A DNA stretch of 64,000 bases. Source: Octopus sinensis. Lineage: Eukaryota. The translations under genes were made by a program, and so were the position numbers. Below, piece by piece: positions 14,649-41,405 of the stretch. The notes beneath the pieces were generated by a model. The model ran no database searches. It was not told the DNA's origin and saw only the letters and a list, made by a program, of their open reading frames with translations. The stretch lies in assembly GCF_006345805.1 (NCBI RefSeq), contig NC_042999.1, positions 116,870,001 to 116,934,000 of the forward strand, given 5' to 3'. The stretch's first letter is position 1. Every line of letters starts with the position of its first letter.

Positions 14649-15868
14649 GGAGAATTCACAAAAAAACAAAAAAAAAAACAAAAGACGAAGTCAGATGGTG
14701 TAGACAACAAACAGATGTATTAGTTTAACGCTCGGGAAGTGAAAAATTCTAACGTTTCAAGCCTACGCTCTTCCACAGAAAACAACACAGAGAGAAGCAA
14801 GGAGAGAAAATAAAGAATGTGTAGTGGCTAGCGATCTGTCATGGCGAAGGCCGGACAGAGGGATCACAAAGGAGAGCTAGAAGGAAGGGGAGATAATGAA
14901 GTAGTGGTGATCCCAAAATGAAGGTGCGCGTGCGTGTGTATAAGAGAATTTGTATGTGCGTGTGGAAGAGGGCTGGTGACCGTGATGTGTGCGTGCGTGT
15001 ATCTGTAGGTGTGTGGATGTGGAGCTGGGGAGTGGTCAGTGCTAGTTTGTGCGTGGTAGTGTGATGTGGTGTTGTGTGGTATGGTGGTGTATGGTGTAGT
15101 GGTGTGTGGTGTGATGGTGATGGGAGGTGGGGGAGGCGAGAGTGGGAAAGCAAGGGTGGGATAGAGATGGGGGTATGTGAGTAGGCTGAGGGTGGGGGTA
15201 GAGGTGGGGTGGGATGAATAGGGAAGGTGGGTTGATGTGTAGGGATGGGGTGGGGTTACGAGGGAGGGGTGACGATGAAGGAAGCAAGGGAGAAGGTTGG
15301 TAGCAGTGAAGAGAAGAGAGAAGGGGAGTAGGAGTGAAGAGAAGTAGGAGAGGTGGGTGGGAGGAAGTAGGTGTGAGGGGAAGAGAGGAGATGGGAGGAG
15401 GTTAGATGAAGAGGGGGAGGAGAGTTGAGCCCATGTGGCGCAAAGGAGCGAAGAGAGAAGATTAATCCTTGTTCACGGCGCAAACGGGAGTCCGGATGGC
15501 CCCTGTGCAAGGACAATCCGAACACAGACAAGTGTTGCAAAGAGTGACCGGTAGAGCGGGAATGGCGTGAGACCGGGGTGCCATTGCCGAGGCGGATATC
15601 TCGGAGGTGTTCCGCGAACCGGTCAGCCAAGTGGCGTCCCGTTTGCCCGATGTATAGAGAAGAGCAAAGAGAGTACTTCGCCCTGATAGATTGCAAGCCA
15701 CTACGCATTCTTTATTTTCTCTCCTAGTTTCTTTCTGTGTTCCTTTCTGTGGAAGAGCGTAGGCTTGAAACGTTAAAGACTTTTTCACTTCCCGAGCGTT
15801 AAACTAATACATATGTTTGTTATCTACACTACCTGTCTTCGTCTTTTGCTTCTTTTTGTGAATTCTCC
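14649..15868 (-). mobile_element. 5'-truncated Penelope-like element: GIY-YIG endonuclease with inverted pseudo-LTRs, in (TA)n
   Basis: LCSSLYIGQTGRHLADRFAEHLRDIR..PVSRH..HS..REQGLIFSLRSFAPHGLN. About 200-bp inverted repeats at 14649-14849 and 15676-15868, with (TA)n on both sides. Confidence 0.92.
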
Positions 15869-15928
15869 CTATATATATATATATATATATATATATATAT
15901 ATATATATATATATATATACATATAGAA

Positions 15929-16140
15929 AGGGTGGCCCAAAAGTAGGTCTACAGTTATCACGTAGGCATCCTAAATTTCTTTTAAAATATTTTATTATAT
16001 TTAAATTTCTATCTTACAATTAACTAAATTAGCATAGAATAATGGTTTCATATTTTTTTTAATAATTAATATCTAAACTGTTAACATATGAATGCGAAAG
16101 AGATAGTTGAAAAACTGTAAACCTACTTTTGGGCCACGCT
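15929..16140. mobile_element. Tc1/mariner-type MITE
   Basis: 28-bp TIRs AGGGTGGCCCAAAAGTAGGTCTACAGTT / AACTGTAAACCTACTTTTGGGCCACGCT. Confidence 0.85.
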
Positions 16141-16664
16141 ATATATATTTTATCATATTTTATTAGAAAATATAAACCCCTTTTGATTGCGTCCACTACA
16201 AATGACACAATAACAATCGCCTTCGAATTATACCCACGCAAATATTAAAAACGATATATTCAGAACAGTCACTACCCAAGAATTTATTCAGAACAATTCC
16301 AATCACTACTATTATAACCACAACGGGTCACTTTTAGGTCACTTGACCATTTAAGAGAATTTCACCATAAAGAGGATTCTACTACTGTCATACCACTCCC
16401 GCATTTTTATTATTCGTTCTCTTTTCCTACTCCATCTTCTTCTTCTTCTTCTTCTTCTTCTTCTTCTTCTTCTTCTTCTTCTTCTTCTCTTCTTCTTCTT
16501 CTTCTTCTTCTTCTTCTTCTTCAGCTACTACTGCTGTTTAAACAATCAAAACCAAGAACTCATATCAAATATTAGGACTGCTACTACCTGCTACCTGCTA
16601 CCAAACCCTCACAAGAGTAAAGTGAGAGATAAATTCAATATTTTTCACTAGAGCACATATATTC

Positions 16665-16788
16665 TATTAATCTTCACAAGAAAAATGTTAACAGTGACTT
16701 CGAACTTTCTGCCTTACTAGCCGTCATGAGACTACCTAATGCCGAAATTTCGAAGTCACTTTGAACAACTTCCTTACAAAATTTAATA
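16665..16788. repeat. Degenerate ~124-bp palindrome (old MITE or hairpin)
   Basis: Perfect agtgacttcgaa/ttcgaagtcact core, imperfect pairing outward to tattaa/ttaata, and central tcatga. Confidence 0.75.
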
Positions 16789-17659
16789 CATGTATACACG
16801 CACATACGCATTTGTGCACATGTATTCCTTTATTATTTGACTAAATTTATGAGAAAAGAACAGACAGCCGCTCAGCAAGGACTATTTCGATAAATTATAT
16901 TGAAATTCTGAAAAATGGTTAAATGAAACATTCTGACGACATTCTTACATGCTCAGCTGCGTTTCTGTCTAAATATTTTCTATTGTTTAGCATTCTAATA
17001 CTACTCCTTGTGTAAGGTTATTTGGACATTCTGAATACAAAAGTAGACCCATAAAAGTAACATAAAATTTTAAGTTTTTCATTTATTGCCCGTTAATATT
17101 TCTTATTTCATATTTGTTTTCTACATATGTCCACCGAGCAATGAATTCCAACTACGTTTCTTATATCTTCTTGCTTAATGGTGGGAGCAGTAGCCATTCT
17201 ATTATCTATTATCTATTATCCCGATTTACTAAGGCTTTTCGTTTCTTTTTCAATGTTTTATTGCTATTACTCAGTAGTGCTACTTGCTCTTAGTTCTGTG
17301 TAATACTTAACACCTAAATAAAATATCGCATATACAGAGGCAGCACACGTTTACACACACAAGCACAACTAGCGCGCGCGTACAGTACTAATTTTATTAG
17401 ATGAATCCATTTCTTTGTAAATAAATATTTTCTTTTGGAAAGAATATATTTATATATGAGACACAACAATGCACAGCATCAACATTTATATAAAGTAGAT
17501 GATAATGCTAATTTCTTTGTATTTGTTGCAAATTTAGATGAGAAAAATATTGTCGACTGCATAGACAACATGTTACATACTTTATCGATATCAGAGGACA
17601 GAAGATAAAGTTAACCTCAGCCGGATTTGAACTGCCGTTTGATGGTGTATAAGTACTCA

Positions 17660-39236: not shown

Positions 39237-39499
39237 GTATAGTAATTCATTATGAGAAATGTGGTATATGTAATCCAAGAATCACTTTCGTTTGAGCTAA
39301 TAATTGCTTCTGATTTAGTCATAAAGCGAGTAAATTTCAAGGGAGGGAGTCTACACGATCAACTGTTGTACTTGATTGCTACTTTATTTTATAGACTTCA
39401 GAGAAATAAACGACAAAATTGACCTCGGCAGGATTTGAACTCAGAAGGTAAAGTGACAGAACATATACAGTAAAGCATTTTCCTTTTTTTCTTATAATA

Positions 39500-39770
39500 A
39501 TAATAATAATAATGAAATTATTGTATACAATGCTCAGGTGCACCACAACTTGTCAAAAGTGCGTATGAAGTATATGCAGTAATGTACAAATGTCTGGAAA
39601 GCGAACAGTGTATGAGTCAGATACATGCTTGCGTATGTATGGAGGGGAGAAAACCAGGTGTAGTGTTGGTGAATCTCGGGAAGCATGGAAGTTTTGAAGG
39701 ATGCAGTGCTCCAACAACTAACAACTGATGCCGGCAGTTTGTTCCATGCTTCAGCAACTCTTAGCGTGAA
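39500..39770 (-). mobile_element. CR1 LINE 3' end (same family as 60440-61232)
   Basis: Close match to 60962-61232 in reverse, with a (TTA)n tail. Confidence 0.88.
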
Positions 39771-39799
39771 TCTTAAAGGATTCTACTAGTCAATCACTC

Positions 39800-40390
39800 C
39801 TAAAATTTTTAATTCAGGCATAAAGGCAATGAAGAAAGGTAGTTGATTATATAGACCCTAGCATCACACTATTGTTTTGATCTCAAAGAGATAAAAGGCA
39901 AAGTTGACATCAAGAAAATTTGATCTCAGAACATAAAGAGCCAAAAAAATATTGGTTTTAAATTTTGGCACAAGGCCAACAATTTCGGAGGAGGGGATAA
40001 GTTGATTCCATCTACCCAATGCTCAGCTGGTATTTATTTTTATTGACTCCGAAAGGATGAAGGGCAAAGTCGACCATTGCAGAATTTGAACTCAGAATGT
40101 AATGATGGATGAAATGCCATTAAATACTTTGCTGGCATGCTAATGCTTCTGCCAGCTTGCCACCTTAACCAGTACAAATATTGATTTCAAATGTTAGCAC
40201 AAGGCCAGCAATTTCAGGAGAAGGGATAAGTTGATTACATCAACCCCATTATTCAACTGTTACTTATTTTATTAGCCCCAAAAGGATGAAAGTCAAAGTT
40301 GAACTTGACTGAATTTGAACACAGTAGGTGAAGACAGAAGAAATGCTGGTAAGCATTATCAATCACCATGCTAACCCAGCTCCCCACCTT
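39800..40390 (-). mobile_element. Three tandem family A SINEs, CpG-decayed
   Basis: Family A motifs with systematic CG>TG/CA changes. Confidence 0.85.
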
Positions 40391-40664
40391 AACCAGTTCA
40401 GATACTGCACAACATTTTGTCGTCTGTTCAAGCTTGTAGAGTATGTAGTCACCAGTGTAAACAATAAGAAACAAATTTTTACTACTTTACCAATGAGATA
40501 AGTGGAAAGTTGAATGAAAGGATGAGAGAAATCATTGTTTTTGATTCATCAAATGTTTATTGTTAAAAGATTGTGTTAGACTTGACCATTTGTTGAGAAA
40601 CAACAGAGTAACGACACAAAGTTCTTTTCATGCAGTCGCTCAGCTTGACTGGCAGTATAGTTAT

Positions 40665-41405
40665 ATGTAGGACTTTGTCTGGCCCTGGCTGCCCAAGATT
40701 AAAAACTGAATCCATGCACTTGTTGAACAATCAACAAGTGTATGGATTCGGTTTTGAATCCCACACAGGCAGGGCCAAACAAGCAACTACATGTATATAT
40801 ATATATATATATATGTGTGTGTGTGTGTGTGTATATATTTATATAATATATATTAATATATATATATATATACATATAGGCATTGCACGGTGATCGCCAT
40901 AAGCTTTAAGCTTATATAAAAATACCATTATCATTTTTACAGGATTGTGAAAATGGCGCCGTATAAAAAACCATTTGCACCAAAATATATATATATATAT
41001 ATTTCGGTGCAAATGGTTTTCAATACAGCGCCGTTTCTACAATCCTGTAAATAATAATAATGGTATTTTTATATAAGCTTAAAGCTTATGGCAGTCACTG
41101 TGCAATGACTAAGGAAAATAATCTAATAAAGGGACATATAAGCCCTCGACAGAAAAAAAGAAGGGTTTCCTGAAAAGCCTTCTTTTTTCTGTCGAGGGCT
41201 TATATGCCCCTTTATCAGACTATTTTCCTTAGTCATTGCACAGTGATCGCCATAGGCTTTAAGCTTATATAAAAATACCATTATTATTATTTACAGGATA
41301 TATATATATATAGGACTTTGTTTGGCCCTGCCTGCCTGGGATTCAAAACCAATTGATGCCTGATGAATGTACGCATGTACGGGAAACTATTAGTAATGCA
41401 ATAAG
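40665..41405. mobile_element. Nest of fold-back repeats in (TA)n (probable PLE pseudo-LTR debris) with a hammerhead-like motif at 41351-41402
   Basis: Palindrome at 40665-40792, forward/reverse/forward accordion at 40881-41299, a third arm copy at 41311-41350, then CTGATGA-A-TGTAC(GCAT)GTACG-G-GAAA-CTATTAG-TA. Confidence 0.72.

Follow-up and report, generated by a model that had tools for sequence, protein, structure and literature searches.

Hammerhead-like motifs in four repeat families of an animal genome, two of them with a variant core and one apparently a Penelope-like element

Introduction

The motifs closest to those described here are the minimal hammerhead ribozymes (min-HHRs) of metazoan Penelope-like elements (PLEs). 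In the available parts of their description (Cervera & de la Peña 2014, PMC4209133), the hallmarks are covarying consensus families, a G10.1-C11.1 pair, and a palindromic 15.2-16.2 segment or loop 3. An unpaired base between positions 9 and 10.1 is a further published trait, and the >80% consensus in the supplement reads 'CUGANGAH G...C GAAAN Palind NU H'; the Crassostrea example there is GUC CUGAAGAA GGGAC...GUCCC AU U U GAC. For PLEs themselves, the accessible text of Craig et al. (PMC8557442) describes inverted 5'-truncated copies, one-sided tails and a (TA)n insertion bias, and ascribes to Neptune/Nematis-type PLEs a CX4CX2C linker that is linked to microsatellite targeting. Natural variants of the hammerhead core are also known, among them U3-A8, A6C, an insertion after A6, U4C, a U10.1-U11.1 mismatch and a 2-bp stem II (PMC3088659; PMC7151607; available portions of both).

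Here we analysed G000:C3:116870001-116934000, a stretch of 64,000 nucleotides from a 2.7-Gb animal genome (the window), in which four repeat families, (i) to (iv), carry a hammerhead-like motif. Our interpretation, to which we give a probability of roughly 0.75, is that all four carry a PLE-type minimal type-I hammerhead, that the motif of family (i) sits in the terminal repeats of an element with reverse transcriptase (RT) and GIY-YIG endonuclease (EN), and that families (ii) to (iv) are likely non-coding end pieces or non-autonomous derivatives. Cutting, if any, is predicted to be weak and dimeric.

Four hammerhead-like motifs in one window

An original prediction, made from the sequence of the window, had listed four motifs, and all of them are there letter for letter (Table 1). 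In copy A of family (i), 15747-15774 (+) reads CUGUGGA-A-GAGC(GUAG)GCUU-GAAA-CG-UU, enclosed by helix I cuuu/aaag (15743-15746 and 15775-15778). Its core CUGUGGA (15747-15753) has U at position 6 (15750), followed by an unpaired A (15754), helix II (15755-15766), GAAA (15767-15770), a palindromic CG (15771-15772), U16.1 (15773) and U17 (15774), directly after which the cut is predicted. The mirror motif of copy B runs 14778->14751 (-), with helix I uuuu/agaa against cuuu/aaag in copy A. Family (ii) reads CCGAUGA-A-CG(GCAA)CG-G-GAAAC at 30952 (+): helix I is aaaacugu/acagguuuu, the 2-bp helix II with its GCAA loop is followed by one variable base and then GAAA, and H17 is A at 30981. Family (iii) reads CUGAAGA-A-GGGG(UCUUCA)CCCU-GAAA-UA-U-A at 34461 (+), with A17 at 34490 and a weak helix I; the core of its left-arm copy (34382->34376, -) has decayed to UUGAAGA. 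Family (iv) reads CUGAUGA-A-UGUAC(GCAU)GUACG-G-GAAAC-UAUUA-GUA at 41360 (+), with A at 41367, a 5-bp helix II (41368-41381), G at 41382, GAAA at 41383-41386, A17 at 41395 and a helix I that has decayed in this copy.

The common order is the 5' strand of helix I, C3-(U/C)4-G5-(A/U)6-N7-G8-A9, one unpaired A, a helix II hairpin (followed in (ii) and (iv) by one further base), G12-A13-A14-A15.1, a short palindromic segment, U16.1-H17 and the 3' strand of helix I. Judged from its letters, this layout is that of a putative type-I hammerhead with almost no helix III. The extra base after A9 is present in four of four families and is A in every majority sequence; it is U only in the decayed third window copy of (i). 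All four also have a palindromic 15.2-16.2 segment or loop 3: ACGU in (i), AUAU in (iii), and the near-palindromes ACUC-A-GAGU in the helix III segment of (ii) and ACUA-U-UAGU in (iv). A G10.1-C11.1 pair is found in the majorities of (i) and (iii).

Copies were gathered by blastn, relatedness between families was assessed by blastn-short between majorities, and open reading frame (ORF) remnants were sought by tblastn; all family copy numbers below are lower bounds, counted as first-look candidates genome-wide. Five majorities were taken from short aligned segments, with 31 rows for subfamily (i-a), 30 for (i-b), and 30, 31 and 30 for the other families. For (iii) only motif-spanning high-scoring segment pairs were retained, and for (iv) 30 of 36 unique rows were used, the other six (five palindromic half-copies and one CUUGAUGA variant) lacking a recognisable core. 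Across families, majorities are closer to an ideal hammerhead than the window copies. The majority of (i) has GCUC in place of GCUU, which gives the G10.1-C11.1 pair; that of (iii) has CCCC in place of CCCU and regains one helix-I pair; and that of (iv) has a restored helix I (GGUGC/GCGCG) and CGUAC/GUACG as helix II. The blemishes specific to the window therefore represent decay.

The families are, as had been proposed, unrelated outside the motif, their majorities sharing only words of 7-13 nt; the exception is the pair of subfamilies (i-a) and (i-b), which are 88% identical over 116 nt. Inverted repeats are seen in the arms of (i) (14667-14849 / 15676-15860, 89-90% complementary), the palindrome of (ii), the fold-back of (iii), and copies of (iv) elsewhere that are often head-to-head. 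(TA)n flanks three of the four, (i), (ii) and (iv), and not (iii).

Two descriptors were run on the window. A partial one (strict core, optional flanking base, helix II of >=4 bp, then GAAA) found two sites, those of (iii) and (iv); 1260 permuted cores gave a mean of 0.11 sites, and 1.0% of them reached 2. A full type-I descriptor, with the relaxed core of the original prediction and a helix I threshold of >=4/7 or >=5/7 pairs, found 4 and 3 sites respectively, against means of 0.13 and 0.06 for 2520 permuted cores, 0.08% and 0.04% of which reached the real count. These sites belong to families (i) and (ii), with both arms counted for each, and all five majorities pass the full descriptor. All four motifs are hammerhead-like well beyond chance.

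It is very unlikely that some of the motifs, above all that of (iii), are chance look-alikes within fold-back repeats. Such a view can draw on the helix I of (iii) (5/7 pairs, two mismatches), on a possible competing UGAAGA/UCUUCA hairpin in (iii) that the minimum-free-energy fold uses, on the permuted cores (1%) that reach the two sites of the partial descriptor, and on the decayed window copies of (iii) and (iv), which fail the full one. The (iii) majority, however, has a canonical core, the extra A, G10.1-C11.1, a palindromic UA, U16.1 and H17 = A, passes the full descriptor, and is built like a published oyster PLE min-HHR (PMC4209133, available part of the supplement), while permuted cores average only 0.06-0.13 full-descriptor sites per window. 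Chance probably also explains two further weak sites in the window, CCGAGGA at 18755 (-), where a 4-bp helix II stands without helix I or III, and a U3-A8-type candidate core with a 2-bp helix II at 32903 (+).

Table 1. Features of the four families in the window and read variants over the family (i) motif.
Feature	Position	Strand	Details
Family (i) copy B, 5'-truncated PLE copy	14667..15680	-	79-82% homology over ~1 kb to L003, L004, L005
Copy B hammerhead-like motif	14747..14782	-	core 14778->14772, U6
Family (i) copy A, 185-nt 3'-end PLE stub	15676..15860	+	ends in (TA)n; inverted relative to copy B
Copy A motif, minimal type-I hammerhead-like	15743..15778	+	core 15747-15753, U6
Read variant, N7	15751		G>U 211, G>C 160 of 587 reads; X21, first mate on +
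Read variant, first loop-2 base	15759		G>A 158/587 reads; X21, first mate on +
Read variant, 11.1	15766		U>C (restores G-C) 505/606 reads; X21, first mate on +
Read variant, H17	15774		U>A 247/589 reads; X21, first mate on +
Family (ii) unit, ~230 nt	30860..31090	.	between (TA)n runs
Family (ii) mirror motif, other arm	30893..30939	-	core start 30931
Family (ii) hammerhead-like motif	30944..30990	+	core 30952-30958, C at position 4
Subfamily (i-b) 3'-end stub	31146..31330	-	(TA)n end at 31091-31142
Subfamily (i-b) motif	31268->31233	-	core CUGUUGA 31264->31258; H17 = A at 31237
Decayed GIY-YIG coding remnant, upstream of (i-b) stub	32119..32244	-	tblastn: 43.5% identity over 62 aa to L124 ORF residues 840-899
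Family (iii) fold-back, two head-to-head ~110-nt stubs	34303..34538	.	236 nt; not in (TA)n
Family (iii) motif	34454..34497	+	canonical core CUGAAGA 34461-34467
Family (iv) stub, decayed copy	41345..41415	+	between (TA)n runs
Family (iv) motif	41353..41402	+	canonical core CUGAUGA 41360-41366

Family (i) and its parent element

Copy B contains a C-terminal GIY-YIG remnant (15430-15672), a CT-rich 3' region (14900-15430, which reads G/GT-rich on the + strand) and the terminal 185 nt. The original prediction had placed a GIY-YIG ORF next to the motif, and the remnant (-) indeed shows 88% identity over 81 aa to residues 819-899 of a 1009-aa ORF in locus L124 (tblastn); Pfam on the 106-aa window fragment alone gave 0 families at E<=1. 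The window copy of subfamily (i-b) reads CUGUUGA-U-AAGC(GUAG)GCUC-GAAA-CG-UA (31264->31237, -), where the majority has CUGUUGA-A-GAGC GUAG GCUC GAAA CG U A, and in related loci the end of the ORF lies ~620-870 nt upstream of the motif.

L124 (G000:C10:29231000-29238000) is an apparently intact relative of family (i), found via a protein search; the longer copies L111-L113 have decayed ORFs. Its ORF (2167-5196) matches RVT_1 above the cut-off at residues 392-581 (Pfam, E 1.3e-7), and residues 812-862 match, weakly and below the cut-off, GIY-YIG (E 0.0078) and TIGR01453 (group I intron endonuclease, E 0.0043). The EN region has a YIGQTGR motif, and a CX4CX2C motif (CSRPRCRTC) lies between the RT and endonuclease regions; a search of solved structures with the EN region gave chance-level matches only (E 0.33-0.98). 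The ORF is flanked by direct terminal repeats, 99% identical at a spacing of ~4505 nt, both of which carry the motif (1231-1257 and 5739-5765, 4508 nt apart). The motif lies ~110-135 nt from the 3' end of the element, and that end is in (TA)n.

With RT and GIY-YIG, pseudo-long terminal repeats (pLTRs), inverted 5'-truncated copies and microsatellite ends, family (i) has the features of endonuclease-positive (EN+) PLEs. By its anatomy it is an abundant EN+ PLE of RT + GIY-YIG type with the motif in its terminal repeats: a genome search with the GIY-YIG peptide gave at least 6283 first-look candidates, five of the 150 matches that were scored have open frames of >=800 aa, and there are at least 2240 candidates for (i-a) and at least 2475 for (i-b). 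Near-identical 31-mers of a 421-nt family (i) stretch occur in runs under six organism labels (A-F, shares 0.16-0.62), and family (i) is therefore common to several related taxa.

Sixteen of 29 other family (i) loci begin at the same element region as the copy A stub. This clustering of 5' ends suggests a preferred end (transcript start or template end) and not random truncation. The 16 starts fall within a 19-nt span, positions 843-861 of the 1024-nt copy B, which places the preferred start ~52-70 nt upstream of the hammerhead core.

Variant cores and motif variation in RNA reads

U6 is found in 30 of 31 (i-a) and 27 of 30 (i-b) copies. C4 (CCGAUGA) is the majority of family (ii), with a few copies reading CUGAUGA, a change that CpG deamination would produce. 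U6 in (i), C4 in (ii) and the extra base are thus family states and not decay, which upholds the earlier proposal of A6>U and U4>C as core variants. That proposal had allowed that the consensus sequences might resolve to ordinary canonical hammerheads; the majorities of (iii) and (iv) do have a canonical core and keep all 11 fixed hammerhead core positions, whereas (i) keeps U6 and (ii) keeps C4, with 10 of the 11 positions each.

RNA reads came from three runs under a second organism label, ~6% of each run being read, and were mapped to 15600-15900 of the window at 88% likeness, with variants scored from 10% of reads. Read depth is greatest over the family (i) motif, reaching ~600 in each orientation in X21, and drops away to either side. 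Variants occur at N7, the first base of loop 2, 11.1 and H17 (Table 1), and among the 40 best-supported of 60 variants none at >=10% touches U6 or other core positions. Mapping to L124 agrees, with U/A variation at H17 and a one-base deletion in loop 2, at low power (841-1248 of 1082-1530 reads per run lie only partly on L124). This is the pattern expected of a constrained hammerhead, U6 included.

We found no A6U core in the literature searched, which included the 2014 supplement and did not cover Lünse, Weinberg & Breaker 2017. 'CUGU' occurs three times in the PMC4209133 supplement, in no case as a core; a literature search on hammerhead A6 variants (A6U/A6C/A6G) returned A6C only, and one combining hammerhead ribozyme and octopus returned nothing describing such motifs.

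Families (ii) to (iv)

Family (ii) is a near-perfect palindrome (30860-31023) with a one-sided 67-nt tail (31024-31090), and has at least 1027 genome candidates, the scored matches being 88-98% identical. The tail is common to all 19 loci examined and stands before a (TA)n run, and exceeds in length the 30-40-bp 'tail' of PLE insertion units in the available text of PMC8557442. The base between helix II and G12 (30977, +; L092-L110) is the most variable of the family, being G, U, C or A between fixed neighbours, as expected for an unconstrained bulge varying among master copies of a young family. Family (iii) has at least 273 candidates, 65-93% identical, and family (iv) at least 46, often as diverging head-to-head pairs. 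At one locus of (iv) (L045/L046, G000:C6:33016568-33017119), two such pairs stand at a 421-nt period, and the 30-nt spacer between diverging cores holds another CUGAUGA.

A PLE ORF was found by tblastn within 1.5 kb in 3 of 19 loci of (ii), 4 of 29 of (iii) and 0 of 29 of (iv), and the matches near (ii) and (iii) look like general PLE background; a GIY-YIG remnant near one (ii) copy is a separate insertion, set off by (TA)n. The PLE origin proposed for all four families therefore holds for (i), through its RT/GIY-YIG ORF and terminal repeats, and finds no such support in (ii) to (iv). We nevertheless read these three as PLE end pieces or non-autonomous derivatives, because head-to-head or opposite-strand pairs, tails and the (TA)n bias are published PLE traits.

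The same families may instead be retrozyme-like or short interspersed element (SINE)-like non-coding hammerhead elements that borrow machinery in trans, from a PLE or another source, and are not truncated PLEs. We consider this possible, on balance doubtful. Their units are short and uniform (~230 nt in (ii), ~236 nt in (iii), ~200 nt in (iv)) and lack an attached ORF, all (ii) copies share one structure down to the tail, and (iv) has its 421-nt tandem pair on another contig; in addition, the available part of a recent preprint describes animal retrozymes as non-autonomous derivatives of PLE pLTRs (bioRxiv 10.64898/2026.07.22.740005). No head-to-tail tandem arrays were seen for (ii) or (iii), however, and head-to-head arrangement is the PLE insertion pattern described in PMC8557442 (accessible text). 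The retrozyme-like origin overlaps with a derivation from PLEs and does not exclude it.

Detection by Rfam models

The Rfam models used were Hammerhead_1, Hammerhead_3, HH9, HH10 and Hammerhead_II. Over the whole window they gave 0 hammerhead matches at gathering score and none among 150 of the 224 matches at E<=10; the 96- and 91-base stretches around (iv) and (i) gave none at E<=10 either, (ii) and (iii) being covered by the whole-window runs. Standard hammerhead models thus miss all four families, as anticipated, and genome annotation consequently undercounts such motifs. Below-threshold 'miRNA' (microRNA) matches (MIR7996, mir-297, mir-3149 and others) fall at 34303-34538, at 30833-31003 and on many (TA)n/(TGTA)n runs; these are spurious matches to fold-backs or simple repeats and not miRNA genes.

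Elsewhere in the genome, an RF00163 search put 7 of 74 scored candidates above the cut-off (L155-L161, e.g. G000:C16:25146363-25146839). These hammerheads read CUGAAGA-GACCC...GGGUC-GAAAC-AUGU-GU, and two of them lie on the same strand, 431 nt apart, as in a retrozyme-like tandem.

Evidence bearing on cleavage

Several observations weigh against our interpretation. Families (i) and (ii) each break one near-invariant core position (A6 and U4, respectively), and (ii) and (iv) have C-G at 10.1-11.1 together with an extra 3' base, which is G in (iv) and may be any of the four in (ii). Folding of single strands was no better than that of shuffles (z -1.79 to +1.15). Copy differences in (iii) and (iv) look like neutral CpG-driven decay and not compensatory change, and therefore provide no covariation evidence for helices I and II. 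Both GIY-YIG-type matches of L124 are below curated cut-offs, and tblastn links no PLE ORF consistently to (ii), (iii) or (iv) within 1.5 kb of their copies. Finally, raw RNA reads cross the predicted cut site, and a check for RNA ends there, as the original prediction had suggested, turned up no pile-up of read starts or ends in the three runs, at a threshold of one fifth of local depth and with orientation unresolved; library type and threshold leave room for low-level cutting.

If our interpretation holds, the fold-backs would arise as by-products when PLE-type insertion leaves an inverted 5'-truncated copy beside another copy, and would not be functional units. A read-through transcript of a fold-back would carry one arm as antisense, and its long hairpin would probably hide the motif. 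The role of the motif in master elements would be to process their RNA, with the palindromic helix III segments (ACGU, AUAU, ACUC-A-GAGU, ACUA-U-UAGU) pairing two motifs into an active dimer. The changed core letters, U6 and C4, would likely weaken the predicted cutting.

The U6 and C4 motifs may alternatively be dead relics, or serve a non-catalytic role (a fold for RT/EN recognition or a part of a pLTR promoter), and have spread without self-cleavage, a proposal that falls somewhat short of an even chance. It would account for the reads that span the predicted cut site without a pile-up of ends, and for the success of the U6 family despite its core, with its thousands of candidates and its long open frames. 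It also agrees with the low activity conferred by A6 changes (natural A6C has k_obs <0.1 per min and is strongly impaired in Mg2+; PMC3088659, PMC7151607), with the considerable loss of in vitro activity in U4C (PMC3088659), with the poor in vitro cutting of metazoan PLE min-HHRs even with canonical cores (PMC4209133), and with Naiad PLEs, which proliferate without canonical hammerheads (PMC8557442), each as given in the available text. Against it, the variation obeys the hammerhead rule: N7, loop 2 and H17 (U or A) vary freely, the other positions are fixed, and G10.1-C11.1 and the palindromic ACGU are kept across subfamilies and under the second organism label. Moreover, A6C is active with Mn2+ (PMC7151607) and U4C supports viroid infectivity (PMC3088659), again in the accessible portions of these papers, so that a changed core need not be dead.

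A more specific idea is that Penelope-type hammerheads in a cephalopod-like lineage have fixed non-canonical cores, U6 in a family with over 6000 copies, some apparently live, and C4 in a non-coding element with over 1000, both held by selection across subfamilies and species. These would be either working cores, perhaps with another metal preference, as in A6C, or a fold kept for a non-cutting job. This is speculative and, in our judgement, rather unlikely.

What hammerheads do for PLEs is not settled: the metazoan forms are poor cutters in vitro, and a canonical hammerhead is missing from some PLE clades. A very successful PLE family that keeps every hammerhead hallmark but one near-invariant base offers a natural experiment. 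Cutting by U6 RNAs would mean that the accepted core consensus is drawn too narrowly and that many ribozymes escape searches; failure to cut would mean that the conserved motif has another purpose.

Comparison with known systems

The original prediction had suggested that the shared extra nucleotide might be new. It is not, since it is already published as a conserved trait of metazoan PLE min-HHRs (PMC4209133, available part). What remains new is chiefly that a whole family carries the U6 core; C4 and the doubly flanked helix II add less to this. The elements concerned are highly abundant, and some of them are young.

With metazoan PLE min-HHRs, as far as the accessible text and supplement of PMC4209133 describe them, the motifs share the type-I topology with a short helix I, the unpaired H and a palindrome implying dimers. 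They also share a location towards the 3' end of the terminal repeats, established for (i), opposite-strand pairs 100-700 bp apart and thousands of dispersed solo copies. Mollusc examples in the supplement, from Lottia (GUAG loop, CG-U-U) and Crassostrea, are built like (i) and (iii). The differences here are the family-wide U6 of (i) and C4 of (ii), C10.1-G11.1 with an extra base before G12 in (ii) and (iv), and the 2-bp helix II of (ii).

The viroid hammerhead with an extra A10 between A9 and G10.1 (De la Peña & Flores 2001, via the available part of PMC4209133) has one unpaired base in common with our motifs, in a type-III context and not in a retroelement. The type-I hammerheads found elsewhere in this genome with Hammerhead_1 (RF00163) share the topology, a CUGAAGA core and a short helix III; in contrast, their G10.1 follows directly after A9, without the extra base, and they score above the gathering cut-off.

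The A6C of phage Bcep176 and the U4C of a viroid (Perreault et al. 2011, PMC3088659; Naghdi et al. 2020, PMC7151607; available portions) likewise combine a single near-invariant change with an otherwise complete hammerhead. The C4 of family (ii) is of the U4C type, and a 2-bp stem II is described as common in the accessible text of PMC3088659. In these sources the core variants are rare single cases in phages, bacteria and viroids, whereas here they are the state of retroelement families with thousands of copies.

Family (i) itself most resembles canonical EN+ PLEs of the Neptune/Nematis type (Craig et al. 2021, PMC8557442, available text), with which it shares RT followed by a C-terminal GIY-YIG, a Zn-finger-like RT-EN linker (CX4CX2C), pLTRs, inverted 5'-truncated copies and (TA)n targets. 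Its placement in this type is tentative, and its GIY-YIG matches are below curated cut-offs.

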